Origin: Candidatus Aenigmatarchaeota archaeon
GTDB taxonomy: Archaea > Aenigmatarchaeota > Aenigmatarchaeia > GW2011-AR5 > JAGGXF01
Length of the DNA: 64,000 nt
Assembly (NCBI GenBank): GCA_021157845.1
Contig: JAGGVU010000002.1
Location: 31,376-95,375, forward strand
Direction of reading: 5' to 3'
In this document: piece by piece, positions 18,916 through 37,106 of the stretch
Position numbering within the stretch: the stretch's first letter is position 1
How the letters are laid out: each line of letters starts with the position of its first letter
Notes under the pieces: model-generated
Told to the model about the DNA's origin: nothing
Seen by the model: the letters and a program-made list of their open reading frames with translations, nothing else
Databases searched by the model: none
Position numbers and translations under genes: made by a program

Positions 18916-19353
18916 GTGGTTGAAATGTTTGCACAATTTGACATAAATCTGGTCGCTTCATTTTTATTTGTATTTGCTGTAGTTTATGCTGTCTTGATTT
19001 ATTCTGCTATTTTGAAGCAGAAAAACATAAATGTTTTATTGTCTTTAGTTATAGCCTTTTTTGCTGTTTCCTATCAGCCGTTTGTTTCTATGATAACAGA
19101 ATTTATGCCATTTGCAAGTATTATACTGGTTATTTTATTTTTTGTTTTGTTTCTGAAAAAAATATTTGACAAAGAGAAAACAAAAGGAAATAATGAAATT
19201 ATAGCAATTTTATTTATCCTTTTACTGGTTGTCGGCTCAACATGGGGTCAAATAAAAAGTTATTTGCCTTTTGCATCTGACAATATCCTCTGGATTATAG
19301 GCATATTAGCATTTTTATTAATGCTTTATGTTGGCACTAGCGGGGAAAAGTGA
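18916..19353 (+). CDS. membrane protein, paralog family member 1
   Basis: Shares the ..F..VLP..FA...Y..L...N...SLVIAFF...Y.PFG.. pattern with 19422 and 19972. Confidence 0.55.
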   Translation: MVEMFAQFDINLVASFLFVFAVVYAVLIYSAILKQKNINVLLSLVIAFFAVSYQPFVSMITEFMPFASIILVILFFVLFLKKIFDKEKTKGNNEIIAILFILLLVVGSTWGQIKSYLPFASDNILWIIGILAFLLMLYVGTSGEK

Positions 19354-19421
19354 AAGAGAGTGAATAAACTTATTTAAATATAATCGTAATATATTTACTA
19401 TACAATGAGAAAGGAGGTTTT

Positions 19422-19907
19422 ATGATGACATGGGCAGTTGCGTTTTTAGGCAATCTTCAGCAAATGGCGTTTTTTGATTTTGTCTTGCCATGGCTTTTGG
19501 CATTTGCAATAATGTTTGGGGTGCTTACAAAGTCAAATATATTCAAGGAAAAAAATGTTAATGGACTAATATCTTTGGTAATAGCATTCTTTTTGACTAA
19601 TTACACACCATACGGAACATCTTTAGGTGCGTTTTTCACAACACTTTCTGGTTCAGCTATTCTCGTACTCTCAGGGCTTTTGGTTGTCTTGCTGTTCGCA
19701 GGCCTCATGGGTCTAAAGCCAGAAGATATATTGGGTGGAAACAAAACAGCACTTGGGTTATTCCTCTTGATAATAGGAATAATATTATTTATATCAGCAG
19801 GTGGAGAATCAGTTATCGGTGTTAATCTTGGAGGAGAAACACTGTCAGCATTATTTATGGTGTTGATAATAGCAGTTGCAGTGATGTTTGTAACCAAAGG
19901 CCAATAG
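19422..19907 (+). CDS. membrane protein, paralog family member 2
   Basis: FDFVLPWLLAFAIMFGVL...LISLVIAFFLTNYTPYG. Four TM helices. Confidence 0.55.
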   Translation: MMTWAVAFLGNLQQMAFFDFVLPWLLAFAIMFGVLTKSNIFKEKNVNGLISLVIAFFLTNYTPYGTSLGAFFTTLSGSAILVLSGLLVVLLFAGLMGLKPEDILGGNKTALGLFLLIIGIILFISAGGESVIGVNLGGETLSALFMVLIIAVAVMFVTKGQ

Positions 19908-19971
19908 ATTTATTAAAACATTTGACTTTGTTGAAGCCGGAAAAATATGAGTCAGAGGAGACGAAAATTAA

Positions 19972-20502
19972 ATGGCGTTCATAAATGAGTTTTTAGTTTA
20001 TCTTGAGCAAATGGATTTTTACAGCTTTGTTCTGCCCTTTATATTTAGTTTTGCCATTGTTTATTCGCTGTCACTCAAGGTTTTTGGCGGAAAAGACTCA
20101 AAAAGTGGTAATGCTGTTTCAACTATAATTGCATTAGTTTTTTCTTTTTACCTGACAGCTTATACACCATTTGGTACTACACTTTCAGCATTTTTCACGC
20201 AATTCTTTGGTCAAATGTCTATAGTAATAATTTCAGCCCTTTTTGTGCTGATTTTATTTGGGCTCGCAGGCTTAAGATTTTTCAGGGGAGAAGGCGGCGA
20301 GGGAATTTTTGATAAATACAAGAACCCGATTATATTGTTTATATTTCTTATAGTAGGAATTTATTTCATAAGCGCAGGAGGATTTTCTTTAAATATAAGC
20401 AGTAGCCTAACAAGAACAGCTATACTTTTATTTGTCATAATAATGGCAGTTCTGTTTGTTACAGGAAGCGAAGGAAAAACATCCGAAAAACCAGCCAAAT
20501 AG
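19972..20502 (+). CDS. membrane protein, paralog family member 3
   Basis: FYSFVLPFIFSFAIVYSL...IIALVFSFYLTAYTPFG. Four TM helices. Confidence 0.55.
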   Translation: MAFINEFLVYLEQMDFYSFVLPFIFSFAIVYSLSLKVFGGKDSKSGNAVSTIIALVFSFYLTAYTPFGTTLSAFFTQFFGQMSIVIISALFVLILFGLAGLRFFRGEGGEGIFDKYKNPIILFIFLIVGIYFISAGGFSLNISSSLTRTAILLFVIIMAVLFVTGSEGKTSEKPAK

Positions 20503-20579: not shown

Positions 20580-21317
20580 CTATCTCCCATCAGTGCTATC
20601 TTTCTGCTCTTCAAATCCAGATGCCTCTACTTCCTGATAAAGGCCTTTTCGCGGATTTTCCTCTTTATTTTCAACAAGTTCTTGCAGCTTCTGGATATTT
20701 TGCGTCATGGATGGCAAAACCTGTTTAAATGTTTTTTCCATCGCTCCTATTCGCGCTTCTATATCATCTATCCTTTCAGTCAAATTTTTTAGTTCATTTT
20801 TTAGCTCTGTATTGTCATTTGCTTTTGGGATTTCTATCTTGTTTATCTTTTCTCGTAGATTATCCCTTAGTATCAGGAAATCCTTGTTTAATTTTTTTAT
20901 TTGGTCGTCAATTTTTTTCCATTTTTCTTCGACAACGCCTTCTATCAGCTCCTCAAGAATCTCAGCAGAATCGCCGTATTCATCCACACCAGCTGATAGG
21001 TCAGGCACCGGTTCGGGACTTTCGCCAGAAGCGGTTGATAATGCTTGCTCTAAATTATCTGTCGGCTGTTGAGGAGGTGGCTGCTCTCCAAGACCAGCGG
21101 TTGTTGAGTAAAATTGGGGAACCGGTTCTTTTTTTTCTTCCTTTTTCTCAGTCAGGACACCACCTTTTATTGCCTGCATCATACCTTTTTCAATTTCCTT
21201 ATAATTATAACCTTTGGATTTTAGCTCTTTTATAATATCTGTTTCCTGCATACCTTTTGCAGACATTTCCTTTATATCATTCTCTACGTTTTTTTCCTTT
21301 TTATGCAAAAAAAACAT
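20580..21317 (-). CDS. coiled-coil protein with P/Q-rich linker, hypothetical
   Basis: 245-aa ORF with an N-terminal small domain, a PPPQQP linker and a C-terminal coiled coil. Confidence 0.45.
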   Translation of the reverse strand: MFFLHKKEKNVENDIKEMSAKGMQETDIIKELKSKGYNYKEIEKGMMQAIKGGVLTEKKEEKKEPVPQFYSTTAGLGEQPPPQQPTDNLEQALSTASGESPEPVPDLSAGVDEYGDSAEILEELIEGVVEEKWKKIDDQIKKLNKDFLILRDNLREKINKIEIPKANDNTELKNELKNLTERIDDIEARIGAMEKTFKQVLPSMTQNIQKLQELVENKEENPRKGLYQEVEASGFEEQKDSTDGR

Positions 21318-21335: not shown

Positions 21336-21740
21336 TTACTTTAGTCCTAATTTTCTATCTAACTCATCCCTTGTTACAAATTTTTGGCTTATTGGGTTTA
21401 TCAAATCAAACATGCTTTCCAATTCCTTTACATCTCTTTTTGTTGCGGTCTTTTCAAATTTCTCAAATATTTTTTCTATAAGATTTTGTACCTTTACCAT
21501 TTCGTTTTCCAGATTTTTCAACCTTGACTCAACAGCGGTCAACTTCTCCTTTAATGCTTTTTGATGATTAAATTCACGCTGCTCCAAAGAATTAAGCCGC
21601 GATTCAAGAGAGTCAAGCTTTTGCTCCACAGTCCGGAGACGCCTGTTTTCTCTATTAGAGCGCCTGACAAGTTCTTTCATTACCAACGCGCTTTGATTTT
21701 CAGCCATACAAGTTATCAACACCTGAAGATGTAATTTCAA
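21336..21740 (-). CDS. coiled-coil protein, hypothetical
   Basis: Heptad-rich ORF (repeated LxxLESRL). The true start may be the internal Met at about 21707. Confidence 0.45.
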   Translation of the reverse strand: MKLHLQVLITCMAENQSALVMKELVRRSNRENRRLRTVEQKLDSLESRLNSLEQREFNHQKALKEKLTAVESRLKNLENEMVKVQNLIEKIFEKFEKTATKRDVKELESMFDLINPISQKFVTRDELDRKLGLK

Positions 21741-21873
21741 TATCCTATAAGAATCATTTATTTCTTCCCATATTTATAATTTATTATGTTCAGTGGCGGT
21801 CGCAAAAAACACGCATTGTTAATCTCCTTCGGCTATTTGGATGCGTCGCATATGGTTTTGGTCGAAGAGATAT

Positions 21874-21950
21874 TTTTGGCCAAATAGATGATAAACAGTT
21901 AAAACAAACATAAATGCGATATCATATGTCGCTGACAAAGTTAAAACAAA
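21874..21950. repeat. dispersed short intergenic repeat, copy Z (contains both X-like and Y-like halves)
   Basis: TTTGGCCAAATAGATGATAAACAGTTAAAACAAACATAAATGCGATATCATATGTCGCTGACAAAGTTAAAAC. Confidence 0.45.
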
Positions 21951-22009: not shown

Positions 22010-24271
22010 GTGATAATTTGTATGGTTTGTGAATATTCTTACGATCCAAACACGAGAAAGATGCGTGTTGATTGTTTGGGATGCATATATGGAGCCAGTA
22101 TAGAAGATTCGCCAGAATGCATGTCAAGAACCATTGAAAAGCTTATGGAAGTTGGCCGAACTACCGGAGTTATACTTGCTGAAACAAGAGAATATGAGTA
22201 TGATGAGAGAAATACTGCGCTTCTTTTGGAAATTGCGCAGGCAGTTATAAAAATAGTAAAAACAGAAAAGCTTACTGCTATTAAAAATCTTGGAATAACA
22301 GAATGTGAAAAATGTGTTCCGCGCAGATTCAGCAAAATGCAGGACATTGTTTCAACACTTAAGTCAGACCCCATAGACGCTTATAAAATGCTTTTGAGAG
22401 AGATAAGACACGTCAATATGAATATAAAAAAAACACAAAATCCTCTTTGCATAAAATGTTATAACCATTACCTTAATCGTGCACTTATCCCGATAAAAAA
22501 TATCATTGAACCTTTACGTTTAATACAGTTATCTGCTGATAAAATAAAAAAGTCCGGCGACAGATCGATATACCGGGAGATATTTCACCCAACAATACGG
22601 CCGAATTTTATGTTTACAAGGTTTATATCTTTGCCGCCTGCCAATGCAGAGCCGCTTGACAGGTATACAGTAGGGGATGGAAATAGCGTTCAGATAGTTA
22701 AAATCCCTGGAAAGGTAAGGTTGTTATATCATATATCTCCATCTGAATTTAATTTAACAGAAGACGAATATATGTTGCTTGACAGCGCAAGAAACTATTT
22801 GTCAGAGCATAAACCAAAGGAAGCAGAACTAACCGATCCAGAAAGAATCAGGGAGCGATTTTATAATATAAATTTTGATTTATTAAATGAGCTGGCAGAA
22901 AGATACGGTAAGACCATACCTGCAAAAAGGTTGTCCAAGCTTGCGTCTATATTAACACGATATACAGCTGGGTTTGGTGTGCTTGAGCTATTGCTACAGG
23001 ATGAGAAGATACAGGATATTTCTATTAATTCGCCGGTTTCACAAAGTCCGATATATATATTTCACTCAGATTTTGGAGAATGTGAAACTAATTTGGTAGT
23101 TAGCCCGAAAGATGCGGAATCATGGGCAACAAGATTTAGACTTATGTCAGGTCGGCCTTTAGACGAGGCAAACCCAGTCTTGGACACAGAACTGATAGTG
23201 CCTGGTGGCAGGGCAAGGGTGGCTGCTATTACGCGCTCGCTGTCGCCAGAAGGGTTGGGGTTTGCTTTGCGCCGTCACAGGGAAAAACCATGGACATTTC
23301 CATTATTTATAAAAAACAAAATGTTGAACCCGCTGGGTGCAGGATTAATATGGTTTATAATAGATGGAGCAAGAACATTCTTGGTCGCAGGAACGCGGTC
23401 TTCGGGCAAAACTTCATTTTTAGGTTCGATGATGCTGCAAATAATGCCAAGTACAAGGATAATAACAGTGGAAGATACGCTTGAACTTCCGGTAGTTGCA
23501 CTGAAAAAATTAGGTTATGATATAGAAAGGTTAAAAAGCAGGTCAGTTATTACGCAGGTTAAGACAGAGTTACCAGCTGAAGAAGCTCTAAGAACATCGT
23601 TACGACTGGGAGATTCTTCTCTTATAATAGGTGAAGTAAGGTCAAGAGAGGCATTGGCATTGTACGAAGCTATGAGAATAGGCGCCCTTGCAAATGTTGT
23701 TGCCGGAACAATACATGGTGATTCACCATATGGTGTTTTTGATAGGGTTGTGAATGACCTTGGAGTTCCTGCTACAAGTTTCAAAGCCACAGATATAATA
23801 ATAATAGCTAATAGGCTTAAAACACCAGATGGTCTTCATAGCTTTAGGCGCATAACAGAGATAACCGAGCTGAGAAAACATTGGACAGAAACACCAGAAA
23901 AAGGAGGGTTTGAGCCTCTGATGCAATATTCTGCAAAAGATGATGAACTAAAGCCTACACCGACATTGCTGACAGGTGAAAGCACTATTCTGAACAACAT
24001 CAGTCAGAATATAAGAGAATGGCGGGGAAATTGGGATGCAATATGGTCTAATATAAATTTAAGAGCAAAAATTCTAAATCTTATAGTTGAAAGTGCAAAA
24101 AAAACAAATGATGATTCTCTTTTAGAAGCTCCGTTTGTTATGCAGTCAAACAATATTTATCATTTGTTGTGTGACGAGGTAAGAAAGGAAGTCGGAAGTC
24201 TTGATTCTGATATGATTTATGATAAATACGTTGCTTGGATAAAAGAGCAGATTAGAAAAAAGGAATTATAA
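22010..24271 (+). CDS. type IV pilus/archaellum-family secretion ATPase (FlaI/PilB/VirB11 superfamily) with Cys-rich N-terminal extension
   Basis: Walker A GTRSSGKTSF, Walker B-like IIGEVRSREA and a His box TIHGDSPYG. 753 aa, with about 250 extra N-terminal residues containing CxxC..CxxC..C. Confidence 0.8.
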   Translation: MIICMVCEYSYDPNTRKMRVDCLGCIYGASIEDSPECMSRTIEKLMEVGRTTGVILAETREYEYDERNTALLLEIAQAVIKIVKTEKLTAIKNLGITECEKCVPRRFSKMQDIVSTLKSDPIDAYKMLLREIRHVNMNIKKTQNPLCIKCYNHYLNRALIPIKNIIEPLRLIQLSADKIKKSGDRSIYREIFHPTIRPNFMFTRFISLPPANAEPLDRYTVGDGNSVQIVKIPGKVRLLYHISPSEFNLTEDEYMLLDSARNYLSEHKPKEAELTDPERIRERFYNINFDLLNELAERYGKTIPAKRLSKLASILTRYTAGFGVLELLLQDEKIQDISINSPVSQSPIYIFHSDFGECETNLVVSPKDAESWATRFRLMSGRPLDEANPVLDTELIVPGGRARVAAITRSLSPEGLGFALRRHREKPWTFPLFIKNKMLNPLGAGLIWFIIDGARTFLVAGTRSSGKTSFLGSMMLQIMPSTRIITVEDTLELPVVALKKLGYDIERLKSRSVITQVKTELPAEEALRTSLRLGDSSLIIGEVRSREALALYEAMRIGALANVVAGTIHGDSPYGVFDRVVNDLGVPATSFKATDIIIIANRLKTPDGLHSFRRITEITELRKHWTETPEKGGFEPLMQYSAKDDELKPTPTLLTGESTILNNISQNIREWRGNWDAIWSNINLRAKILNLIVESAKKTNDDSLLEAPFVMQSNNIYHLLCDEVRKEVGSLDSDMIYDKYVAWIKEQIRKKEL

Positions 24272-24283
24272 GAGGCAGAAGAA

Positions 24284-26323
24284 ATGGGATGGTTTGACAA
24301 CACCTTCGATGATAAAAAGGATAAAAAAAATATAAACAAAAAAAAAGAGCCACCGAAGGAACTTCAGACGCCAGAAACAAGAGAGTATAAAATTTTCAAG
24401 GAAGAAGAATTTTTTTTTGCCAAACATACGCTCTATGAAAAAGCATGTGCTATTGCAGAGAAGATATTGAAAATCAGCCCAGATAAAAAAACAGGATATC
24501 AGTTGGATAGGGCAATAAAGTTTACACATTTAAAATGCACAAAAGAGGGCGTGACATCGTTAGCATCTTTATTTTTATTTTTTTGGACATTCTTAATATT
24601 TTTTCTGGTTATCACAAAGTATATAACTGGGGTCGGAATATCCCTTATACTTGGTGGACTTATTTTTATTATCATTTCACCATTTGCTTATTATTTGTAT
24701 AAATATCCGCTTCACCTGAAAAAAAAATATGAGATTCATATAGGCAGTGAAATAGTGATGCTTATTCTGTATATGGTCATATATATGAAGGATCATGCTA
24801 ACTTAGAGGGGGCATTGGACTTCTCAGCCAAAAATTTAAGAGGGCCCCTTTCTTATGATATCAGGAAACTTTTATGGGATATTGAAGTTGGTGTCTACAA
24901 AACACCGGAAGAGGCGTTAATAGAATATGCATCCAATTGGAGAGAAAATAAAGAGTTTGTAGAGTCTATACAAACAATAATTTCCAGCCTTGCACAAACA
25001 GAAGACCGGCGGATAATCGTTTTAGACCAAGCCATGAATATAATCCTGAACGGAACAAGGGAGCGCGTAAAGAGATATAGCTATAAATTAAAAATGCCAA
25101 TTATGGTTGTTAACGCACTCGGAATAACGTTGCCAATCATGGGATTGGTTATGTTTCCAGTTATTGCTATATTTCTTTCAGACATATTCAAGCCAATAAT
25201 GCTGTTTGTGGGGTATGATGTATTGTTGCCTATACTGCTGTTTTTTATAATAGTAAATATTCTTGAAACCAGGCCTGTTACATTCAGTAAAATAGATATA
25301 TCTGACAATCCTTCGGTTCCTGCAGAGGGCAAGTTTAATCTGAAGCTTAAGAATATAACAAAGGAAGTTCCAGCATGGCCATTTGCTATTTTTATTGCGT
25401 CTCTTTTCTTTTTAGGAGGGCTATTCCTTTTCACAAAAGAGGCAGAAGGGCTGATAGCTTCTGTTTTAATGATAGCAGGTATAAATTTTGGGATAATGGT
25501 GTATAACTATCTTTTATCTTTCCAGCTTATCAAAATCAGGAAAGAGACAAGAGAAATAGAAGGGCAGTTTGCAGAGGCCTTATTCCAACTGGGCAACAGG
25601 GTTTCGTCGGGCGCTCCTATCGAAATTGCTCTTGAGAGAAGTGTTGCTGATATGGAGAATCTGACAATAAAAAACCTTTTCAAATCTGCGCTCTCAAATA
25701 TGCAGAATCTTGGTCTTACATTTGAGGGCTCATTTTTTGACAGGAAATACGGTGCTATAAAGCAGTATCCTTCAAAGCTGATAAAATCTGTTATGAGGTC
25801 CGTCATAGACTCAAGTAAAAAGGGTGTTCAGCTTGCTGCCACATCAATGCTTAACATATCGCGATATTTAAGAGATATACATGAAACACAGGAAGAAATT
25901 GAGGAAGAAATGGGGGATATCATAAGTTCTTTGAAATTTCAGGCGTTCTTTTTATCACCACTGGTTAGCGGCGTTGTTGTAACAACAGCTACTATAATAA
26001 TCAGAATATTAAATCAGCTACACCAGACAGTTGGCGGAATGACAAATGTTCCTGGTGGCGGATTCGGGACAAGTTTACTTGGTGCATGGGGACAAATACC
26101 AATTAACCCGGGCGCTTTTCAGCTTATAGTTGGCCTTTATCTTGTTGAGACACTTTTGCTGCTTTCTATGTTTATCAGCGGGATAGGAACTGGTGAAGAT
26201 AAAATAGGTAAAAGAGATCTCACAGCAAGTATTTTATTAATAGGATTTATAGTATATATAATATCATTGGGAATAACTTTATTAGTATTCGGCCCAATGG
26301 TTGCGATAGGTGTTGCGGTATGA
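24284..26323 (+). CDS. polytopic membrane platform protein (FlaJ/TadC/PilC-like)
   Basis: 679 aa with more than 9 TM helices and two cytoplasmic helical domains. Sits immediately downstream of the ATPase. Confidence 0.6.
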   Translation: MGWFDNTFDDKKDKKNINKKKEPPKELQTPETREYKIFKEEEFFFAKHTLYEKACAIAEKILKISPDKKTGYQLDRAIKFTHLKCTKEGVTSLASLFLFFWTFLIFFLVITKYITGVGISLILGGLIFIIISPFAYYLYKYPLHLKKKYEIHIGSEIVMLILYMVIYMKDHANLEGALDFSAKNLRGPLSYDIRKLLWDIEVGVYKTPEEALIEYASNWRENKEFVESIQTIISSLAQTEDRRIIVLDQAMNIILNGTRERVKRYSYKLKMPIMVVNALGITLPIMGLVMFPVIAIFLSDIFKPIMLFVGYDVLLPILLFFIIVNILETRPVTFSKIDISDNPSVPAEGKFNLKLKNITKEVPAWPFAIFIASLFFLGGLFLFTKEAEGLIASVLMIAGINFGIMVYNYLLSFQLIKIRKETREIEGQFAEALFQLGNRVSSGAPIEIALERSVADMENLTIKNLFKSALSNMQNLGLTFEGSFFDRKYGAIKQYPSKLIKSVMRSVIDSSKKGVQLAATSMLNISRYLRDIHETQEEIEEEMGDIISSLKFQAFFLSPLVSGVVVTTATIIIRILNQLHQTVGGMTNVPGGGFGTSLLGAWGQIPINPGAFQLIVGLYLVETLLLLSMFISGIGTGEDKIGKRDLTASILLIGFIVYIISLGITLLVFGPMVAIGVAV

Positions 26324-26451
26324 GGAAAGGATATACGCTTAACCTCTGGTTGATTATTATTTTAATAATTTTTTGCCTGGCTTTAATTTATTTTTTAGTG
26401 CTTAGAGAAAAAATTTTATCGAATGTCCTGGATGTGGTTTCATGGAAATAA
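26320..26451 (+). CDS. small pilin-like protein (43 aa; not in ORF track)
   Basis: MRKGYTLNLWLIIILIIFCLALIYFLVL.. shows a class-III signal-peptide pattern (RKG then a hydrophobic stretch). ATG overlaps the upstream stop (ATGA). Confidence 0.3.
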   Translation: MRKGYTLNLWLIIILIIFCLALIYFLVLREKILSNVLDVVSWK

Positions 26452-26612
26452 AACATAAAGGACTGGCAACTGATTTGGCAGCAAAGATAATTTTATTTGT
26501 TATGGTTGCTGCGGTTGTAATTTTTATTTATTTAGCTGCTACCAAATCATTTTTCCCTCAGTCGGGTCAAAATATATTTGTTTCGTTTTGGAAAGCAATA
26601 TTTGGTGCCTGA
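26442..26612 (+). CDS. small pilin-like protein (56 aa; not in ORF track)
   Basis: MEIKHKGLATDLAAKIILFVMVAAVVIFIYL.. has a KG motif followed by a hydrophobic helix. Overlaps the previous ORF. Confidence 0.3.
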   Translation: MEIKHKGLATDLAAKIILFVMVAAVVIFIYLAATKSFFPQSGQNIFVSFWKAIFGA

Positions 26613-26629
26613 CAAATTGGGATGTTTAA

Positions 26630-27631
26630 ATGAGAAAAAAAGGTCAATTTAGCTTTACAAAAGCCATTATTATTTTAGTAGTAGTTATTGCACTGTCTCT
26701 CTTGATATTATCAAAAGTAAGGGTGTTTAGCAGAGATTCGCTGAATGGAAAAATAAACTTAAATTTTGTTGAACTTCTAAATACGCCAGATATTTCAGGT
26801 TCTGTTTCTATGTCAGGAACAGATGCACAGGGAAACAGCCAGTATGAATATAATTTTAATGTTGGAAATATGGAGCTAAAGTATCATGGTGCTGATGAGA
26901 CAACTGTTATAATTATTTTTACATTTAAAGGCCCAACTGACAAGACACTTCCAATTGGCGAAATAAAACTAATACCAAACGAAATGGCTGAAATCGATCC
27001 GCCTGCTGTAAAATTTCAGATGTCATTAAAATCAGGAATTTTTGCTCAGGCGCCCCCTTCGTTTAATGGAAAAATAAACAGCACTGCTGGTGGTGTTTAT
27101 GTTGGAAATTTTTCAATATATGCAAGAATAAAGGAATGTAAGGAAACGACAAGCAGCGTAACAGGTCAAACAAAAAAGGAATCAAAAATAGATTTTGACG
27201 TCTACGGAAGGACAAATGAAACATCAGATATAGAGCAATTGGGAACGATCAGTTTTTGCTGCAGCTATGACAGCTATGGCAGTTCTAATAATATTTGTAC
27301 AGACTGCAAAGGGAATGAAACAACAACACAAACACTGGCAAATTTACCGGGCAATGGTGAGGTAGCTATCTCATATACTGGCATATGCGGCGAAGACATC
27401 ATGGCCGACCAAGGCATACCTATTACATATAATTGGGTAGATGTAGGAATAGATGCAAAAGGTGGGTACAAAAAAAGTTTAGAGAATTATAAAACTGTAT
27501 ATATAAGGTTTTTTAAAAAAAGCAGCTGCGTGGAAAATAATGGCAATGATTTATCTCAGCTTATGGGCAAATGTGCTGCTGATAATTATTTGGGAATGCG
27601 GTCTTTTGAAGCAGATGTGAAAGAAATATAA
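26630..27631 (+). CDS. large Cys-rich pilin-like protein with class III signal peptide
   Basis: N-terminus MRKKGQFSFTKAIIILVVVIALSLLIL. 333 aa with 8 Cys in the C-terminal half. Confidence 0.6.
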   Translation: MRKKGQFSFTKAIIILVVVIALSLLILSKVRVFSRDSLNGKINLNFVELLNTPDISGSVSMSGTDAQGNSQYEYNFNVGNMELKYHGADETTVIIIFTFKGPTDKTLPIGEIKLIPNEMAEIDPPAVKFQMSLKSGIFAQAPPSFNGKINSTAGGVYVGNFSIYARIKECKETTSSVTGQTKKESKIDFDVYGRTNETSDIEQLGTISFCCSYDSYGSSNNICTDCKGNETTTQTLANLPGNGEVAISYTGICGEDIMADQGIPITYNWVDVGIDAKGGYKKSLENYKTVYIRFFKKSSCVENNGNDLSQLMGKCAADNYLGMRSFEADVKEI

Positions 27632-27651
27632 TTATTTAATGATGATGCAAA

Positions 27652-27786
27652 ATGAAAAAATTTTTATGGGCTATAATATTGCTTGTTGCTGCAGTTTTTA
27701 TACTAACGCTATTTATACTGAAAGCTAAAAATATGGGCATAAGCCTTATTGAATATATAGCTGGTCTGAATCTGTTTGGTGGTTAA
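27652..27786 (+). CDS. small hydrophobic protein (44 aa; not in ORF track)
   Basis: MKKFLWAIILLVAAVFILTLFIL.. fills an otherwise noncoding gap within the operon. Confidence 0.25.
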   Translation: MKKFLWAIILLVAAVFILTLFILKAKNMGISLIEYIAGLNLFGG

Positions 27787-27927
27787 ATGGAAATGCAGGG
27801 TTTTTTGGTAAGGCTATTGATAATGCTTGCGGTGCTTGCACTTATTTTTTTACTGCTTAAAGGGATTGTACCGGGTTTTGATGAGTCAGTCAAAAATTTA
27901 GTATGTTATGCTTTTGGAAATTGTTAA
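27787..27927 (+). CDS. small hydrophobic protein (46 aa; not in ORF track)
   Basis: MEMQGFLVRLLIMLAVLALIFLLL.. In the same frame as the next pilin-like gene, separated by a single TAA. Confidence 0.25.
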   Translation: MEMQGFLVRLLIMLAVLALIFLLLKGIVPGFDESVKNLVCYAFGNC

Positions 27928-27936
27928 GGTGATATT

Positions 27937-29130
27937 ATAAATAAAAAAGGAGATATTGAGATAGGGCTGGCACAGATTATACAAGTTATTATAGCATTAC
28001 TTGTTATTGCAACGCTTGTTTCAATTTTCAATACAGGAGCCGCTGCCACCCGTGAACAAACAGCCTTTGTCACTGCACAGGCACTCGCTGCACGCATAAA
28101 TGAGGCGTGTTTAGACACAAGTCAAGAGAGTTTAGGCACAAGTCAAGAGATGGAGATAAATATTCCGCAAGGAAAGATAATGCCATCTGTAAATTCACTT
28201 GATCCCGGAACAACTGTCGAAGGCGCTTATATAAAGATGCTTGCAGACCCAGAATTTGTTCTTTATTACGAGAGTTTTCCAATAGGCGATGATATTTCAT
28301 GGACATTATACACAGACCTTCCTTATACTGTCTATGCTTCGCTTAACGACAGCAGGCAAACTATACAAAATTTTAACGAGCTGGAAGCAGATTTTGTTTC
28401 CAATGTTAAAAAAGAGGTCAGTGACTACCTTTTAACAAAGGGGGTTGATGATGATTATCTCAAAGACGTTGAAAACATGAATGTCTTCCTGACAAATAAA
28501 TTAGTTGGAGGCGAACTGGGCAGCTGGCATCATACGAGCGTTGCAGACATTTTTAATATTTCTTTTACAGGGTTTAATCTTGCTAAAGCTTCATCAATCA
28601 AATATTTAGCATGTGGGGATAATGCACTTTGCCTTAAAACTCATAAAAATATCTATAGATTTCCGCTTACTAATTGCGACGGTATAGATTCAATAGAATT
28701 GCACACAGACAGCTTTTGGTCTTTTGGTCACCAGCGGGGGTTTGGGCTGGCTAGTCCATGTAAGTTAAAGGTGAAAATTTACAGGGCAAGTGGAAATAAT
28801 TGTTATTGCCACCAAAAACTATCTACCCCGATTTTTAATGTCTCGGAAAATGGAACTGCCACAACTATCGGAAAGAGAACAATGTGTTTTAATGAGCTTG
28901 GTGAAGAAAAGGCAGATAATAATTTTCAGTGTATAATAGTTGAGGCAGTTGGCGGAGCAAAAGACGGAACATTTTGTTATGTAAAAGACAGAAGCTGGAC
29001 GTACAACAATATAGCTGAAGATTTAGAACTGGTTAAAAGCAGTAATAACATTTATCCTGTTCTTAAACCACCGAGGCACTGGAGAGGTAAGCTTGGACTT
29101 AAAAATATATTCTGGCGGTGGCCCGACTGA
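27937..29130 (+). CDS. large Cys-rich pilin-like protein; pilin-type N-terminus lies upstream of the first ATG (28150), candidate non-canonical ATA start
   Basis: In-frame upstream sequence reads (I)NKKGDIEIGLAQIIQVIIALLVIATLVSIF, matching the class-III signal peptides of neighbouring genes. AGGTGA lies 4 nt before the ATA at 27937. The ORF track gives only 28150..29130. Confidence 0.45.
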   Translation: MNKKGDIEIGLAQIIQVIIALLVIATLVSIFNTGAAATREQTAFVTAQALAARINEACLDTSQESLGTSQEMEINIPQGKIMPSVNSLDPGTTVEGAYIKMLADPEFVLYYESFPIGDDISWTLYTDLPYTVYASLNDSRQTIQNFNELEADFVSNVKKEVSDYLLTKGVDDDYLKDVENMNVFLTNKLVGGELGSWHHTSVADIFNISFTGFNLAKASSIKYLACGDNALCLKTHKNIYRFPLTNCDGIDSIELHTDSFWSFGHQRGFGLASPCKLKVKIYRASGNNCYCHQKLSTPIFNVSENGTATTIGKRTMCFNELGEEKADNNFQCIIVEAVGGAKDGTFCYVKDRSWTYNNIAEDLELVKSSNNIYPVLKPPRHWRGKLGLKNIFWRWPD

Positions 29131-29543
29131 TGTCAAAGGGTGCAGGAGCTCTGATAAAAGAGGTTTTATGCATAGTTATAGGGCTTATTATTTTTGCACT
29201 TTTCGCAGTTCCTATAATGCAGGCTACAGGCAACACAATTGCTGAAGCAGGTATGAACCTAAACGCAAGGTATCATTGCGAGCAAATAGCCGGAATATTG
29301 AACATGTTATCGTCTTCTGATAATATGACAGTATTTTATAAAATTCCTTCAGAAAAATGTAATGTGAATATAAATGTTAATAATTCAAAAAGTGTGGAAG
29401 TTTTTATTGACCAGTCAAGCTATCAAAAATCTTTCATCGACAGCAGCATCGAAATTGTTCCTGCTAGTTTTTCCTGTAAAAATGGTGCTGCATCTTTGAA
29501 ATTTGAAAAAAAAGGAGACAAAATTTTAATAACAGGTGGATAA
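29130..29543 (+). CDS. pilin-like protein with class III signal peptide
   Basis: MSKGAGALIKEVLCIVIGLIIFALFAV. The ATG overlaps the upstream TGA. Confidence 0.55.
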   Translation: MSKGAGALIKEVLCIVIGLIIFALFAVPIMQATGNTIAEAGMNLNARYHCEQIAGILNMLSSSDNMTVFYKIPSEKCNVNINVNNSKSVEVFIDQSSYQKSFIDSSIEIVPASFSCKNGAASLKFEKKGDKILITGG

Positions 29544-30287
29544 ATGGATATAGTAAAGACAATACTTTTGGTTATACGCATGGTTGCTTTTGGAGCTTTT
29601 ATTGTGTTTTTCTTTACAAACCTATTTAATGTAACTATATCTGCGGATAGTCACGACAGTGAAAGATTTTCAGTAGAGATATCTGAAAACCTTTTAGCTT
29701 CTGATCTGACAAATGGATATGCAGTTTTTGACACTGCCAAGTTAGACGAACTCGATAAGAAGCATATAGAGCCGATATACAGCTGTGAATTTGTTTATTT
29801 GGCGAACATAACTGATTTAGAAACTCATGATTACTGGCTGATTGGTTCTGACTTTGGGCATATAGTTAACAGTCTTGTCTTGCCCGTTAAAATTAATAAT
29901 AGCGGTTCAATACATAAAGGCAGTATGCTGTTATACATAATGGAAAACCCATTCTCAAAAGTGAGCTGCCTTTTGAACAAAGCTGAAGAAGAGGGGCAAT
30001 CAAGCCTGACACTTGACTGGAGCAAGGGCACTGTAAAAAATCCCAAGAAAGCAAAAGAATTAGAAGTTGAAATAAAATGGTTTGGTAATTATTTTTGTGT
30101 CATTGACAAATATAATACAATAGCAACATTTAATTTATATTATCCAAAACCGACCACTGTTTATATGTGTAGATATTCATCAACACCGCTGAGAGATTTC
30201 AGCTATGAAAAACCAATTAAAACACTTATTGCCATAAGAGAAAACGGGAAATTAAAGTTAGAAGCAGAAGGTTTTAATGATGAATAA
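29544..30287 (+). CDS. pilus-associated protein with N-terminal signal anchor
   Basis: MDIVKTILLVIRMVAFGAFIVFFF. Start is coupled directly to the upstream stop. Confidence 0.5.
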   Translation: MDIVKTILLVIRMVAFGAFIVFFFTNLFNVTISADSHDSERFSVEISENLLASDLTNGYAVFDTAKLDELDKKHIEPIYSCEFVYLANITDLETHDYWLIGSDFGHIVNSLVLPVKINNSGSIHKGSMLLYIMENPFSKVSCLLNKAEEEGQSSLTLDWSKGTVKNPKKAKELEVEIKWFGNYFCVIDKYNTIATFNLYYPKPTTVYMCRYSSTPLRDFSYEKPIKTLIAIRENGKLKLEAEGFNDE

Positions 30288-30795
30288 AATGCGATATATG
30301 ATAAAAGGCATGAGAAGTAGAAAAGGTGTTGCACCAATAGCTGATATGATTGTCACATTTGTCATAGTTCTTGCTGTTGTAATAAGCGTTGTTGCAATAC
30401 TTTTTTACACAACAGCAAAGGACAAACTACACACGCCGGCCGGGATAAACTACAATATAGATCTTGTGGTTGTCACAACCGAACCTTATTATTTTTCATT
30501 TTTATTTAATGAGCCGTTTTTAAGAGAAATTACCCGTGCAGCATACTCTTATCCAGCTTTAAGCCCGGATCCGGATTTGTCAATTAGATGTAAGAATATA
30601 TTTTCCCCGTATAATATGCTGAAATATAGCTTGTCAATAGAAGATTATATAGTATGCAATTTTACTGAGAATAAAAATATAGAGGGTGCTCAAATAGAAA
30701 TACCGTTAATATTTGAAAGAAGTGTAAAATATGCAAAACTGGAAACAAAGATGAAGGAGCCAGAAATTCCAGACATAGGTGTTAGGATCAAATAA
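30277..30795 (+). CDS. pilin-like protein with class III signal peptide
   Basis: ..MRSRKGVAPIADMIVTFVIVLAVVISVVAIL. True start is probably one of the internal Met codons. Confidence 0.5.
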   Translation: MMNKMRYMIKGMRSRKGVAPIADMIVTFVIVLAVVISVVAILFYTTAKDKLHTPAGINYNIDLVVVTTEPYYFSFLFNEPFLREITRAAYSYPALSPDPDLSIRCKNIFSPYNMLKYSLSIEDYIVCNFTENKNIEGAQIEIPLIFERSVKYAKLETKMKEPEIPDIGVRIK

Positions 30796-30805
30796 GGTGT
30801 ATAGA

Positions 30806-31510
30806 ATGAGTAAAGGATTTGCAACAGCAGTTATTGTGGCAATATTCATAGCTGCTGCTGCTATCGCAGGATTTGTTATTATGGATAACAAAATGAACCG
30901 GGAAAAAGAGATAATTATGAAAGAGCAGGAAATAATCTTAAGTGATGTTAATTTTCACCTTGCTGACCAGTCTCTTAAGGAGGGATATTATCTAACAACT
31001 GTTCAGATTATTTATGATTTGTGCAGCAATGGCTTTGGCAACACAATTTGGTATAACGGGACAAAGAATATACCTTCCCTTGGTGAAATAGAATCAAAAA
31101 CAGAGGAATCTATAAAAAACAATGCATATCAGGGAGAATTTATTATGAACGGCGTAAAAATAAGGGTAGACAAACTGTCAGCAAATGTCAATATAACTGA
31201 TAGACTGACCTATAACATAAGCTCTGTTATATCTGTAATCAAGCCCTCGACAGCTGGGCCAACAACAAAAAGTGGCAGAAGAGATTATTATGGCCTAATA
31301 AATGTTGACATACCAGATATGATTACCAAGGGAGAATGCGTTATAGATGCGCTATCATCTGGACTAGCTCCAAATTGTGGTTCTGGCATAACAATAGAAG
31401 ATGGAACAGAAAAAACAATAAAGATAAAATCTGCATCGCAAAATTATTTTTACGACGGAGAAAAGTTCACACAAAAGCCATTTGAGCTTGTTATTAAATT
31501 CAAAGAGTAA
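30806..31510 (+). CDS. pilin-like protein with class III signal peptide
   Basis: MSKGFATAVIVAIFIAAAAIAGFVI. AAGGTG lies 6 nt upstream of this ATG. The ORF track starts at 30779. Confidence 0.55.
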   Translation: MSKGFATAVIVAIFIAAAAIAGFVIMDNKMNREKEIIMKEQEIILSDVNFHLADQSLKEGYYLTTVQIIYDLCSNGFGNTIWYNGTKNIPSLGEIESKTEESIKNNAYQGEFIMNGVKIRVDKLSANVNITDRLTYNISSVISVIKPSTAGPTTKSGRRDYYGLINVDIPDMITKGECVIDALSSGLAPNCGSGITIEDGTEKTIKIKSASQNYFYDGEKFTQKPFELVIKFKE

Positions 31511-31570
31511 ATCACATAAGATGAAAAAAAATTATAAAAAGGGATACGAATATAATTAATCTGTGAGCAT

Positions 31571-31888
31571 ATGAATAAAGGTATATCACTTCCAGTAAAT
31601 ATGGTTATAATTCTTATAATAGCTGTCATTGTTTTAGGCGTTTCTTTGGCATTTCTTCTTAAGATTGGCTCGCGAGGGATGGACGAAGCAGCAAACAGGC
31701 AGCTGGCAAATAAATTATGCACTCAATATGTGGGAAAAGACCCTACCTGCTCAGATACAAGCAAAGCAGATAGCGAGCTTTTGGAAAAATTGGCATCAAC
31801 ATGTGCAAAACTTAATTATACCGAGTGTTTAGATATAGCAGATGTTTCTTGTGTTAAAAAATGCTGTTCATTATTCTGCTCGGAATAA
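31571..31888 (+). CDS. small Cys-rich pilin (candidate major pilin), paralog of 37107..37442
   Basis: MNKGISLPVNMVIILIIAVIVLGVSLAF, with a Cys-rich C-terminus. 105 aa. Has its own A/T-rich TATA-like upstream element. Confidence 0.6.
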   Translation: MNKGISLPVNMVIILIIAVIVLGVSLAFLLKIGSRGMDEAANRQLANKLCTQYVGKDPTCSDTSKADSELLEKLASTCAKLNYTECLDIADVSCVKKCCSLFCSE

Positions 31889-31962: not shown

Positions 31963-32046
31963 ATGTTATATTCAATTTGCGTTGGCCCGCAAAGCCTAAA
32001 TTTTAAAACCGAAAACTTTATATATAATCGTTACAAAAGTAACAAT

Positions 32047-32595
32047 ATGGTCAAAAAAGTTTCAATATGGTTAACTTTGGAACCATTGTTATATGCCGAG
32101 CCAAAACATCTTGCTGAGATATCAAAAAAGCTCAAAAGACCGCACACGACTATAAGAAAACAACTTGCAGTATTTGAAAACATTGGACTATTAGAGAAAG
32201 AAAAAAAAGGAAGGCAAACACTTTACCAACTGAAAAAAATCCCTTTGTTTGTGGATTACTTAACAATAATTGAGAAGGAAAAGCTAATTGAAAGATGTAA
32301 AGAGGAGTTAGTTTTAAAAGAAATAATAGAGCAGTTACATTCCTTTAATAATCCTATTATTATTTTTGGTTCGGCTGTAGATTCAGTAAAAAAAGCAGGA
32401 GATGTGGATATTCTTGTTGTTGGAAAATTTAACAGAGAAAAAATTAAACTTCTTGAGAAAAAACTTAATTTGAAATTTCATATTATAAATGTAAAATCAT
32501 TAAAAGAAATAAGTGAAACATTAAAAAAAGAAATCATAAAAAAGCATTTGATTATCCAAAAAAGCGAGGAATGGATAAAATGGTTAGTAAGTTGA
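32047..32595 (+). CDS. minimal nucleotidyltransferase (MNT) with N-terminal wHTH, antitoxin-like
   Basis: NTase motif GSAVDSVKKAGDVDILVV. Internal ATG at 32047 (MVKKVSIW); the ORF track starts at 31963. Confidence 0.55.
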   Translation: MVKKVSIWLTLEPLLYAEPKHLAEISKKLKRPHTTIRKQLAVFENIGLLEKEKKGRQTLYQLKKIPLFVDYLTIIEKEKLIERCKEELVLKEIIEQLHSFNNPIIIFGSAVDSVKKAGDVDILVVGKFNREKIKLLEKKLNLKFHIINVKSLKEISETLKKEIIKKHLIIQKSEEWIKWLVS

Positions 32596-33047
32596 AATGG
32601 TGTTTCAGGAAGAGAGAAGTTAAACTTATCGAGCCTAACGAAAATCTATCAAATGAATATTTGAAAAGTGCTGAAGAAACCTTGCTTGTTTTGAGAGACA
32701 TTAAAGGAAAATCAAATATGTGGTTAGCAACAACAAAATACTATTCTGAATATTTTGCACTTTATGCTTTGTTAATGCGTATAGGCATTAAATCGGAGAT
32801 CCATGATTGCACTATAGAGATTGTGAAGTTTCTTGAAGAACAAAATGTTATTGAAATGGGGATTGCAAAAATACTTGAGAATGATAAAAGTTTAAGAATC
32901 GATAACCAATACTATTTGAAAAATAAGAAGGTATTTGTAGATTACAATAACTTAAGGGATTTGATTTTTAAAATCAAAGAAATAATAAACACAATAACCA
33001 ACGAAAAAATTGAGGAAATAAGAAGAAAAATCAGAGAAATAGTTTAG
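32571..33047 (+). CDS. HEPN-domain protein, toxin-like partner of MNT
   Basis: HEPN helical pattern (YYSEYFALYALLMRIGIKSEIHD). Overlaps the MNT gene by 25 nt. Confidence 0.5.
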   Translation: MDKMVSKLKWCFRKREVKLIEPNENLSNEYLKSAEETLLVLRDIKGKSNMWLATTKYYSEYFALYALLMRIGIKSEIHDCTIEIVKFLEEQNVIEMGIAKILENDKSLRIDNQYYLKNKKVFVDYNNLRDLIFKIKEIINTITNEKIEEIRRKIREIV

Positions 33048-33276
33048 CTCTCCGATCTCGGCTTCTCTGGGCCGAAGGCTCAGGTCACTTGACAGTGATT
33101 TAACGGTTACGCTCAGTTGCACCTTGTTTCGCCCAAATTTGCTTTTAGTCAACTTCGCTTAATCGCATATGTTCAATCGAGAATAAGTCCTAAATAATTG
33201 AAAGGGCAATTTCTAAAAAGTGGGAGGGGCTCGCCTACCGATATATTTAAATAAAAGTGTTAGTTAAGTTATAAAT
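33048..33276. repeat. cassette-spacer repeat family, copy E1
   Basis: Carries CGATCTCGGCTTCT, a GC hairpin, GCTCAGGTCACTTGACAG (33078-33095), ATTTAACGGTT and ACTTCGCTTAATCGCATATGTT (33152-33173). GC-rich relative to flanking sequence. Confidence 0.55.
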
Positions 33277-35022
33277 ATGATTAAATTAAAAGAGGTTATA
33301 ATTCTATTTTCAGTATTTTTAACGATAATTCAATCTGTTTCTGCTATCTCAAATGTTCAACATTCTGTAGATGGAAATAAAGTTACCTTAACTTATCAAG
33401 GGATTCCTCCATTTTGGATAAATATAAGAGGAGATACAAACATCGGGCAAGCAGGAGGATATTTATGGGCAAAAACATACTCAAAATCATTTAGTTATGA
33501 TATGAGTTTTGCTATTAATCCTTCTAAGAAATTTTATTATGGCATTAAAGATACAAGTTGGAGTTCTCCAACTGTTTTTAATTTAGGTGAAGTTCAAAAA
33601 AATGGATTAATTATTATTAATAAAAATGCTGATGGTAAGAATTACGCTAAACAAATTGCTCAGAATAGGGGTTGGGGATTTATTGAGTTAGAATCTTCAG
33701 ATATTAACTATATTAAAAACACCGTAAAATCATTTTATAATGAAAATAACAACGAATTTCTATTAATAATTGGTGATTTTAATGAAATACCTCTTAAAGA
33801 CACTGGAACACAACAATTTGGTTCTCAAGTTTATATTACAGACCCTCAATTGTATGGGGACATAAATGGAGATGGTTATGTTGATTTAAGCATTGGTAGA
33901 ATTCCTTTCTCATCCAAAATTTTATTGGAAAAATATTTTGATAATCTCCAAATTTCAGGTGAGAATGTATATATTGAAAATTATCCTTTTGGTAGCAGCT
34001 ACGATAATCTCCCATACGATGGATCTACATCAGGAGAATACATTGCTTCATTTTGTTTAAAAAAAGAATTGCCTCAATTGCAACCATATCGATTTAGAAG
34101 CAAAAATCAATTGATTAATGATTATCGGAGTTCTTCAGTAGTGCTTTTGAATACTCATGGCTCTTGGAGTGGTTTTAGTGTTAAGACTGAAGAGGAATTT
34201 AGAAACAAACAAACGCATTCTTTGGGTATTAATGACTTATGTGGCACGCAACAAGAAGATTGTTTTACTAATAGACCCATTTTTCTGCATTTTTCCTGCT
34301 TGAATGCAAGAAAATTAGGTATTGATCTCATAAAAAGAGGAGCTTCTGCTTTCATTGGGAATTATAATACTGGAGGTTATACTCCTAAAGGATTTTTATC
34401 TGAACTAGCTACAGGAAAACCTGTTGGTACTGTTATGAAAAATCAAATAAATAGAAAATTAAGCCATAATTTAGCTCTTAAAATGATTGTTGAAAATAGA
34501 GGAGAAAGAGAGAATGTTAATATAATTAATGAAAATATTGAAATATTTGATGATTATGGCGCTATCATGTATGGAGACCCAACACTTACTGTTAATATTC
34601 AAAAAGGTTCGGAAAATGTTAATATCCTTGAAGATCATAACAACAAAGTTGTAACAATCAAGATTAATAAAAACCCGGAGTTCATTCTTGATCCAGAACA
34701 TGGTGAAGACTATTATGGGATTCTTTGTTATAATAGCGTAAATTTAGATTCTTTGAAACACATAGATAAATCTTCATGGGAACAAACGTTTAATTCTTCA
34801 CACATGGCTACATTTCTTATACCAATAAATGATAATTCAATACAAGAGATTACTTCAGTTAAGATTAAATTAGAAGATCAATATGAGACTATATATGATA
34901 ACTCTATAAACTATTATTTATTCAAAGGAATAGACAAACAATTTTTATATTTAGATCTAGGTTATGATTCTCCTTTTATACCTTCAAATAAAGATTTAGA
35001 AATTCAAATTTACTATAATTAA
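33277..35022 (+). CDS. secreted protein with Sec signal peptide; possible C25/caspase-fold cysteine peptidase
   Basis: Signal peptide MIKLKEVIILFSVFLTIIQSVSA. His-Gly (LLNTHGS) and a downstream Cys (HFSCLN) spaced like the gingipain catalytic dyad. 581 aa. Confidence 0.4.
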   Translation: MIKLKEVIILFSVFLTIIQSVSAISNVQHSVDGNKVTLTYQGIPPFWINIRGDTNIGQAGGYLWAKTYSKSFSYDMSFAINPSKKFYYGIKDTSWSSPTVFNLGEVQKNGLIIINKNADGKNYAKQIAQNRGWGFIELESSDINYIKNTVKSFYNENNNEFLLIIGDFNEIPLKDTGTQQFGSQVYITDPQLYGDINGDGYVDLSIGRIPFSSKILLEKYFDNLQISGENVYIENYPFGSSYDNLPYDGSTSGEYIASFCLKKELPQLQPYRFRSKNQLINDYRSSSVVLLNTHGSWSGFSVKTEEEFRNKQTHSLGINDLCGTQQEDCFTNRPIFLHFSCLNARKLGIDLIKRGASAFIGNYNTGGYTPKGFLSELATGKPVGTVMKNQINRKLSHNLALKMIVENRGERENVNIINENIEIFDDYGAIMYGDPTLTVNIQKGSENVNILEDHNNKVVTIKINKNPEFILDPEHGEDYYGILCYNSVNLDSLKHIDKSSWEQTFNSSHMATFLIPINDNSIQEITSVKIKLEDQYETIYDNSINYYLFKGIDKQFLYLDLGYDSPFIPSNKDLEIQIYYN

Positions 35023-35887: not shown

Positions 35888-35905
35888 TTGAATTTACTTA
35901 TTATT

Positions 35906-37066: not shown

Positions 37067-37106
37067 GAAATATAATTTATTCTTACGAACTGCAGGAGGT
37101 TGTTTT

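Follow-up and report, generated by a model that had tools for sequence, protein, structure and literature searches.

Type IV pilus-like loci of DPANN archaea

The closest described systems include loci of DPANN archaea. Hamm et al. 2024 (Nat Commun 15:6449, PMC11291902) report two conserved type IV pilus-like loci in cluster-2 DPANN, in the Aenigmarchaeota, Nanohaloarchaeota, Woese-, Pace- and Nanoarchaeota. Loci of this type combine coiled-coil proteins (CCPs) with CpaF, TadC and filament proteins, and the one named Locus 1 lies near GatE. The adjacent CCPs resemble viral sigma-1, and several of the locus products were detected in the proteome of Ca. Nanohaloarchaeum antarcticus. Makarova et al. 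2019 (PMC6393860) describe DPANN 'dark matter' islands in which an ATPase and TadC are accompanied by signal-peptide proteins that are predicted pilins. In subclade 4F of Makarova, Koonin & Albers 2016 (PMC4858521), ATPase, TadC and pilins occur with an intracellular coiled-coil protein, arCOG07564; the 4F ATPase is also found in nanoarchaea, where the pilins could not be identified. Here we analyse a locus of 13 co-directional genes on the + strand at approximately 22010-31888 of a 64,000-nt stretch of DNA, referred to as the window, from a Candidatus Aenigmatarchaeota metagenome-assembled genome (MAG; assembly GCA_021157845.1, contig JAGGVU010000002.1, positions 31,376 to 95,375). The genes encode an assembly ATPase, a polytopic membrane protein and 11 proteins of 43 to about 397 aa.

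We propose, with a probability of roughly 0.8, that this locus encodes a type IV filament (type IV pilus-like) machine of the cluster-2 DPANN kind. This is a type of locus that has already been described, and not a new kind of system. An initial annotation made from the sequence alone had called it a type IV pilus-like locus of a DPANN-like archaeon. The family of the ATPase, a platform protein recognized by the Pfam T2SSF model and an architecture that recurs in related DPANN loci all support that proposal, and the source is indeed an Aenigmatarchaeota MAG, of a tiny, symbiotic DPANN archaeon. In its details the annotation was only partly right. The gene string, the ATPase, the platform and the cysteine counts stand; the start of the ATPase, the length of its extension and the number of leader-bearing proteins had to be corrected, and a further pilin-like gene lies outside the annotated range, at 37107-37442.

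For comparison, we scanned one genome per species for relatives of the ATPase. At least 585 loci encode one, of which we kept the best 80. These are 50-64% identical to our ATPase over the whole length, N-terminal extension included, and they belong to Aenigmatarchaeota, Nanohaloarchaeota (including the closed genomes CP046106 and CP012986), Woesearchaeota and genomes labelled 'Nanoarchaeota'; the first three of these are also the first three lineages named by Hamm et al. Compared by description, the window shares with their Locus 1 a CpaF/FlaI-like ATPase, TadC, filament genes, adjacent CCPs (here cc245 and cc134) and a nearby GatE. The presence of cc245 and cc134, a weak sigma-1 match and the GatE/GatD genes fit that description, and the locus is therefore a new member of the described type. 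Where the two differ is in the filament genes. The paper annotates only 'FlaF' and 'PilA', whereas we find 11 genes and a detached twelfth next to alba. What our analysis adds is a rule of even cysteine numbers, the conserved p397 family, conserved tiny open reading frames (ORFs) and conserved upstream paralogues with five transmembrane (TM) segments. Subclade 4F, again likened by description, also has an ATPase, TadC and pilins with a coiled-coil protein, but neither an ATPase extension nor the 5-TM paralogues are described for it, and models of the PilA family (arCOG02416-type) miss the proteins found here.

The assembly ATPase and the platform protein

The first gene of the locus (22022-24271, +) encodes a 749-aa assembly ATPase of the FlaI/TadA/GspE2 family, as indicated by Pfam, NCBIfam and PDB matches. 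It scores 56.5 bits with Pfam T2SSE (cut-off 24.9). The best NCBIfam match is FlaI, at 125.6 bits for an equivalog cut-off of 550; TadA (TIGR03819) reaches 114.7 bits, under its cut-off of 373, and BasE 65 bits for a cut-off of 1000. In the PDB, the Archaeoglobus GspE (afGspE, 2oap) comes first with 110 bits and an E-value of 8e-31, followed by FlaI (75 bits) and CpaF at about 1e-19. VirB11-type ATPases are far weaker, at about 28 bits against 110, and so is PilT; the protein belongs to the FlaI/TadA/GspE2 group. In an alignment with 13 homologues (n = 14), the Walker A, Walker B, Asp box and His box motifs are all invariant, and judged by these motifs the enzyme is catalytically intact.

The initial annotation assigned this protein to the FlaI/PilB family, which holds, and gave it 753 aa from the GTG at 22010, which does not. 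Because the homologues begin MVC(D/E)Y, the start is most likely the ATG at 22022, and a 99%-identical database protein is likewise 749 aa long. The top matches come from Candidatus Aenigmatarchaeota MAGs; they are full-length, with about 740 aa, and share 58-72% identity. The N-terminal extension had been put at about 250 aa. Relative to afGspE and FlaI it measures about 190-200 aa, and it consists of a small beta-beta-alpha-beta-beta domain and then a four-helix bundle, which together are DPANN-specific. We also looked at the CxxC...CxxC...C cluster of this extension as a conserved metal site. In 14 sequences just C99 and C150 are invariant, and in 54 a single Cys attains a conservation of 90%. 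With one or two Cys conserved in the family, a conserved zinc or other metal cluster in the ATPase N-terminus is therefore unsupported. Three homologues of the ATPase (P0074, P0097 and P0103) are about 1245 aa long and include intein and LAGLIDADG domains (PF14890, PF14528), in line with a strongly conserved host protein.

The second gene (24284-26323, +) encodes the 679-aa TadC/FlaJ-like polytopic protein that had been recognized from the start. It has about 10 TM segments and matches Pfam T2SSF in two stretches, at 33.6 bits versus a gathering score of 25.2; a sequence search of the PDB finds nothing significant. In 62 of 81 loci, TadC is the gene directly 3' of the ATPase.

That FlaI is the best NCBIfam model for the ATPase could suggest an archaellum, that is, a motility locus. 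Some of the homologues are annotated as 'flagellar protein FlaI', and one of the coiled-coil neighbours, cc134, has a faint match to FlaC_arch. However, the FlaI score is far from its equivalog cut-off, and in the PDB the non-archaellum afGspE beats FlaI (110 versus 75 bits). FlaH (KaiC-like), FlaF, FlaG and the archaellin domain (Arch_flagellin) have no match in any protein of the locus, which argues that this is not an archaellum. We consider a motility locus exceedingly improbable.

A chain of pilin-like genes downstream of TadC

The remaining 11 genes (26320-31888) follow TadC on the same strand and, as had been noticed, are packed tightly or overlap. From the ATPase to the last gene, p105, the junctions are 12, -4, -10, 17, 20, 0, 9, -1, 0, 22, 10 and 60 nt, and the overlapping packing suggests one transcript for the chain. 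A European Nucleotide Archive metagenome scaffold with an identical TadC has gene calls that agree with ours, apart from a truncated version of the gene of about 397 codons. Rfam and tRNA scans of the whole window give no match.

All 11 products have an N-terminal hydrophobic helix, and in eight of them (s43, s56, p333, p397, p137, p161, p234 and p105) the helix is preceded by a leader of the form M-x(1-4)-[KR]-G, followed by 5-9 mixed residues and then by about 18-20 strongly hydrophobic ones. Leader and helix occur together in 8 of the 11 downstream genes versus 1 of approximately 70 other genes in the window (Fisher p = 4e-8), so the clustering is not due to chance. Of 316 downstream ORFs in the related loci, 157 show [KR]G ahead of the hydrophobic core, with I/V/L/Q/M/F at position +1 and S/A at +2, which we take to be the archaeal PibD-type cleavage context. 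The class III-like N-termini quoted in the initial annotation are all present in the sequence, and its four hydrophobic ORFs of less than 60 aa, at 26320-26612 and 27652-27927, correspond to s43, s56, s44 and s46, each with an N-terminal helix. Its count of "at least ten" class III signal proteins has to be lowered to the eight with a leader, as s44, s46 and p247 have the helix only.

The chain begins with two small proteins, s43 (26320-26451, +; 43 aa, MRKG/YTLNLW, the slash following the leader, then the helix) and s56 (26442-26612, +; 56 aa, MEIKHKG/LATDLAAK, then the helix). Two small ORFs with an N-terminal helix recur at this position after TadC in related loci. Next comes the large p333 (26630-27631, +; MRKKG/QFSFTKA, then the helix), with 8 Cys in its ectodomain. 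Its position is held by a large Cys-rich protein in other loci, and p333 itself has no detectable homologue in the 80 loci; the same BLAST comparison finds no relatives of p161, p234, s43 or s56. Two more small proteins with the helix follow. The 44-aa s44 (27652-27786, +) has no KG leader, and a positional counterpart aligns with it in five loci (L004, L006, L007, L021 and L026). The 46-aa s46 (27787-27927, +) belongs to a conserved small family (..L.G.VPG.(D/E)S..), seen by alignment with ORFs 5' of p397-family genes, and its counterparts lie directly upstream of such genes in L004, L006, L007 and L026. The position and size of these tiny ORFs are conserved, as is part of their sequence, and they are therefore real genes. 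In the same four loci, the small ORFs 5' of the p397-family gene are 40-47 aa long and start with MR(I/L/V)EY and then a hydrophobic helix. This start resembles the N-terminus of a mature Flp pilin ('EY' motif), leaderless; s46 in the window has no EY.

After p397 (27934-29130, +), discussed below, the chain continues with p137 (29130-29543, +; MSKG/AGALIKEV, then the helix, 4 Cys), whose family of 137-149-aa proteins is found at the same position in L004, L007, L012 and L026. The bitopic p247 (29544-30287, +; 4 Cys) has the N-terminal helix and no KG leader (MDIVKTILLVIRM..). It has homologues in L004, L006, L007 and L026, and leaderless N-termini of the MD type occur at its position in other loci; p247 could be an assembly or alignment subunit instead of a pilin. 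The last three genes encode p161 (30310-30795, +; MRSRKG/VAPIADM, then the helix, 2 Cys; an alternative ORF start is at 30277), p234 (30806-31510, +; MSKG/FATAVIV..) and the small, Cys-rich p105 (31571-31888, +; MNKG/ISLPVNM, then the helix, 8 Cys). The 60-nt gap ahead of p105 holds a TATA-like TTATAAAAA, and a search of 5.8 billion proteins for homologues of p105 recovers only its own cluster.

The twelfth protein, p111b (37107-37442, +; MSKKG/ISLPINM, then the helix, 6 Cys), is detached from the chain and adjoins alba. It is the only other real gene of the window with the leader-plus-helix pattern, it shares the N-terminus KGISLP(V/I)NM with p105, and it comes with a TATA-like box of its own and with a strong GGAGG ribosome-binding site. 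The pair of alba and a pilin-like gene (about 100-117 aa), at 36606-37442 in the window, is also found in the nanohaloarchaeal loci L049, L052, L058 and L066, at about 20.1-20.9 kb, where it lies directly 3' of the pilin chain. In the window, chain and pair are separated by a low-GC stretch at 31963-36400 (GC 0.30 versus about 0.35-0.39 in the pilus locus). This stretch looks like an insertion. Its first product is a helix-turn-helix and nucleotidyltransferase protein, overlapped by the gene of a 158-aa partner that is possibly HEPN-like and has no Pfam match. The others are a secreted protein of 581 aa that resembles Peptidase_C25, a protein of DNA alkylation repair and one similar to nucleoside deoxyribosyltransferases.

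The cysteines provide evidence of a different kind. For 176 downstream proteins of at least 90 aa with an N-terminal helix, collected across loci, the number of Cys in the ectodomain is even in 143 cases, odd in 17 and zero in 16 (binomial p = 5e-26). In the window, Cys make up 3.0% of the ectodomains versus 1.2% of the housekeeping proteins. Even counts and high Cys content strongly support extracellular, disulfide-bonded domains. The initial annotation had already suggested disulfide stabilisation for the 333-aa and ~390-aa products, to which it gave 8-10 Cys (8 in p333 and 10 in p397), and the even-Cys rule gives that idea strong support.

A large protein with a non-canonical start

The most conserved protein of the set is p397, a large pilin-like protein with 10 Cys, about 397 aa long if it is translated from a non-canonical ATT or ATA start. 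In this frame there is no ATG, GTG or TTG before 28150, and gene callers shorten the protein to 326 aa. In an alignment with 17 homologues, its first 70 or so residues fall on their N-terminal helix and share an invariant Cys with them. Because that helix is conserved, p397 must begin at an in-frame ATT or ATA within 27934-27960. After the TAA of s46 there is a Shine-Dalgarno-like GGTGAT and then, in frame, ATT ATA AAT AAA AAA GGA GAT ATT GAG ATA (27925-27960 of the window); translation is perhaps by termination-reinitiation. We also considered a read-through or fusion of s46 and p397, which are in the same frame with the TAA in between, and rejected it. Related loci encode the two as distinct genes that overlap, a fusion with two helices is incompatible with the alignment of the p397 family, and other frames have no usable start.

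The family has the conserved motifs GDPNYVLYYESFPPGEA.GWE, CG.NALCLKT, DFYLASPC and W.WPG. Searched against 1.84 billion proteins, a profile built from it recovers 344 representative clusters, of which 152 have E <= 1e-30. The N-termini of family members are of two kinds: some have a KG leader, and others have no leader and begin M-x-x-I-E-E, an acidic residue lying near position 5. An AlphaFold2 model of p397, the single protein modelled (predicted template modelling score 0.75), shows a 57-residue helix (residues 3-59) and an alpha/beta head. Compared with PDB folds, the head has no significant match; the modelled fold resembles a pilin in its long N-terminal helix only.

Gene order in related loci and comparison with other systems

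A co-directional chain of genes for proteins with an N-terminal helix follows TadC in 33 of 44 loci and is up to 15 genes long. The order repeats, with two small proteins (about 40-60 aa), one large Cys-rich protein, two small ones and then large or medium ones, also in Nanohaloarchaeota. Most sequence similarity in the chain is gone, and three families remain detectable: p397 (12 loci, including one nanohaloarchaeal relative), p137 (5 loci) and p247 (5 loci).

The downstream genes might instead encode ordinary signal-anchored secreted or surface proteins, with the real pilins of the ATPase-TadC pair encoded elsewhere. Pilin models based on hidden Markov models (HMMs) miss these proteins, and 11 of the 44 loci (L017, L055 and L070, for instance) have no chain 3' of TadC, from which it follows that the ATPase-TadC pair can be separated from pilin genes. 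On the other hand, the chain in the other 33 loci is co-directional and keeps its order in several phyla, its genes overlap, and [KR]G-plus-helix is strongly enriched in it. We find this explanation quite improbable.

Bacterial Tad/Flp (type IVc) pili offer another comparison. In both cases the ATPase matches TadA/CpaF, the platform is TadC-like and candidate subunits are very small (40-56 aa here); the small ORF of some related loci even starts with MR(I/L)EY, like the Flp 'EY'. Unlike Tad/Flp systems, the window has one platform gene instead of TadB and TadC, and its small proteins do not have the G/XXXXEY motif. TadZ, a secretin, a pilotin and other Tad components are not found among the locus proteins scanned, and the TadA score is well below its cut-off (114.7 versus 373 bits). 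The minor-pilin/PilY1 tip complexes of bacterial type IVa pili and the GspH-K pseudopilins of the type II secretion system also count amongst the closest systems.

The main rival of a pilus is a machine like the bindosome or a pseudopilus, in which the large Cys-rich proteins would form a short surface assembly and not a long filament, serving perhaps uptake, secretion or a cell-cell junction, by analogy with Sulfolobus Bas and the type II secretion system. The ATPase does match BasE; most of the downstream coding mass is in large ectodomain proteins (p333, p397, p247 and p234) instead of a single abundant small pilin; and many p397-family members have no cleavable leader. That about 11 different subunits keep a fixed order from phylum to phylum is also more reminiscent of a multi-subunit complex than of an array of a pilin and its paralogues. 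However, at 65 versus 1000 bits BasE is far under its cut-off, and the solute-binding (substrate-binding-protein) domains of the Sulfolobus bindosome are not detected in the locus proteins. The chain also conserves 40-56-aa proteins that are little more than a helix and resemble shaft subunits, and p105 and p111b have apparent promoters of their own, as is often the case for major pilin genes. On balance we regard a short assembly of this kind as unlikely.

Several observations weigh against a type IV filament machine as well. None of the 12 proteins matches a pilin model or a class III signal model of Pfam or NCBIfam (Pilin_N, Class_IIIsignal, TIGR02537), even at E-values up to 10. Of the proposed HMM searches, then, those for the ATPase (T2SSE) and the platform (T2SSF) succeed and those for pilin families do not. 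A FlaFind-style scan has a similarly mixed outcome, as the relaxed [KR]G motif is present in 8 of the 11 proteins and in p111b, while a strict FlaFind-type expression matches at the leader of p234 alone. The polar spacer of 5-9 residues between the G and the hydrophobic core is long, three of the products (s44, s46 and p247) have the helix without the KG leader, and many p397-family members are leaderless too. No filament has been seen for this organism. The window encodes no prepilin peptidase, as the initial annotation had stated; its large polytopic proteins are limited to an MscS channel and to small membrane proteins that have no assigned family. A motif scan of the 10-kb flanks on either side of the 80 related loci finds no GxGD-type polytopic ORF. 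Peptidases of the TadV type have been reported in clusters of Nanohaloarchaeota (PMC9563170).

Genes upstream of the ATPase

Two coiled-coil genes lie between the ATPase and the upstream membrane-protein genes, on the opposite strand. The gene directly 5' of the ATPase, cc134 (21336-21740, -), encodes a small coiled-coil protein with weak matches to coiled-coil models that include FlaC_arch and DUF7310. Homologues occur in 50 of 81 loci; among the 65 loci whose upstream sequence is long enough, 42 have one. They typically lie 400-470 nt 5' of the ATPase gene and are transcribed in the opposite direction. Next to it, cc245 (20580-21317, -) is also divergent from the ATPase, has neither TM segments nor a signal peptide, and is present in 47 of the 65. 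The loci that conserve the coiled-coil proteins include the nanohaloarchaeal L065. For cc245, Pfam returns coiled-coil noise only (DUF7310 and similar), and the PDB a weak match to reovirus sigma-1 (E = 0.66) and nothing significant. The divergent genes for cc134 and the ATPase are separated by 280 nt, which include a comparatively GC-rich segment at 21790-21890 (gttcagtggcggtcgc...ggtcgaagag) with no Rfam match, which may be regulatory or a small RNA.

Further upstream there are four tandem genes for small membrane proteins (18322-20502, 3-5 TM segments) that share the motif FFxFxLPW; similar genes are found 5' of the ATPase across many DPANN phyla. The first, mp197 (18322-18915, +), has three predicted TM segments, no Pfam family and weak homologues at the same position in L007 and L011, and its neighbourhood suggests that it may be part of the system. 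The 5-TM mp145 (18916-19353, +) is a paralogue of mp161 and mp176 and has homologues 5' of the ATPase in 10 loci. In mp161 (19422-19907, +; 4-5 TM segments), which occurs in 34 related loci, the FFxFxLPW motif is conserved, and there is no Pfam or PDB match. The paralogue mp176 (19972-20502, +) also has 4-5 TM segments; a sequence search of the PDB gives nothing significant. Amongst the 50 loci with at least 4 kb of upstream sequence, 31 have some mp paralogue. We considered these paralogues as candidates for the prepilin peptidase. In the window and in the related sequences they have no Pfam A24 match and no GxGD or conserved Asp motif, and mp176 in particular is therefore not an A24 peptidase.

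A few kb upstream of the locus are GatE (GatB_N, GAD and GatB_Yqey domains; 14406-16226) and GatD (16420-17754). Elsewhere in the window, an unusually long ORF of 1315 aa (49538-53485, -) has an N-terminus resembling the ATP-cone of ribonucleotide reductase and might hold an intein.

Proposed mechanism and significance

By analogy with type IV filament biology, a hexamer of the ATPase would dock on the TadC platform, and ATP hydrolysis would pull subunits out of the membrane and add them to a surface filament, in which they stack by way of their N-terminal hydrophobic helices. The 11 downstream products and p111b would be the filament subunits or accessories. In the eight products that have it, the basic leader ending in [KR]-G would be removed by a prepilin peptidase whose gene lies in another part of the genome. 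As shaft subunits, the best candidates are the tiny proteins of 40-105 aa, s43, s56, s44, s46, p105 and p111b, and the large disulfide-rich p333, p397 and p234 would be minor or tip subunits with binding surfaces. The leaderless p247 may be a bitopic assembly component, and the coiled-coil proteins and 5-TM paralogues are probably cytoplasmic or membrane accessories. The role of the locus is likely contact with a host cell or a surface, and we infer an adhesin or attachment role for the Cys-rich proteins.

A more specific possibility is that the machine is the assembly apparatus of the DPANN 'attachment organelle' and not an ordinary adhesive pilus. Cryo-electron tomography (cryo-ET) has shown a tube of about 7 nm that enters the host cytoplasm, in an organelle of which Gaisin et al. 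2024 (PMC11104419) state that the molecular identity is unknown; pili and ATPases are not mentioned by Johnson et al. 2024 (PMC11420986). The small subunits would then form the thin tube, and the large disulfide-rich subunits and the coiled-coil proteins the parts in contact with the host. An ATPase 50-65% identical across phyla, the fixed order of subunits and the DPANN-specific N-terminal domain may be cited in favour. We hold this possibility to be doubtful, and a type IV filament machine of the cluster-2 DPANN kind remains our preferred reading.

It is an open question by what means DPANN archaea, which live attached to other cells, achieve this attachment and feed. A locus type that is nearly universal in several DPANN phyla, with a strongly conserved ATPase, is therefore a prime candidate for the contact machinery. 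For this locus we provide a parts list with coordinates of about 12 pilin-like genes missed by annotation pipelines, among them the tiny ORFs and one whose start codon is non-canonical. From the analysis we also derive simple rules for searching other DPANN genomes, namely a [KR]G leader with a helix, an even number of ectodomain Cys, a fixed gene order and the pairing of alba with a pilin-like gene, which ease the design of proteomic and cryo-ET tests in cultivated relatives.

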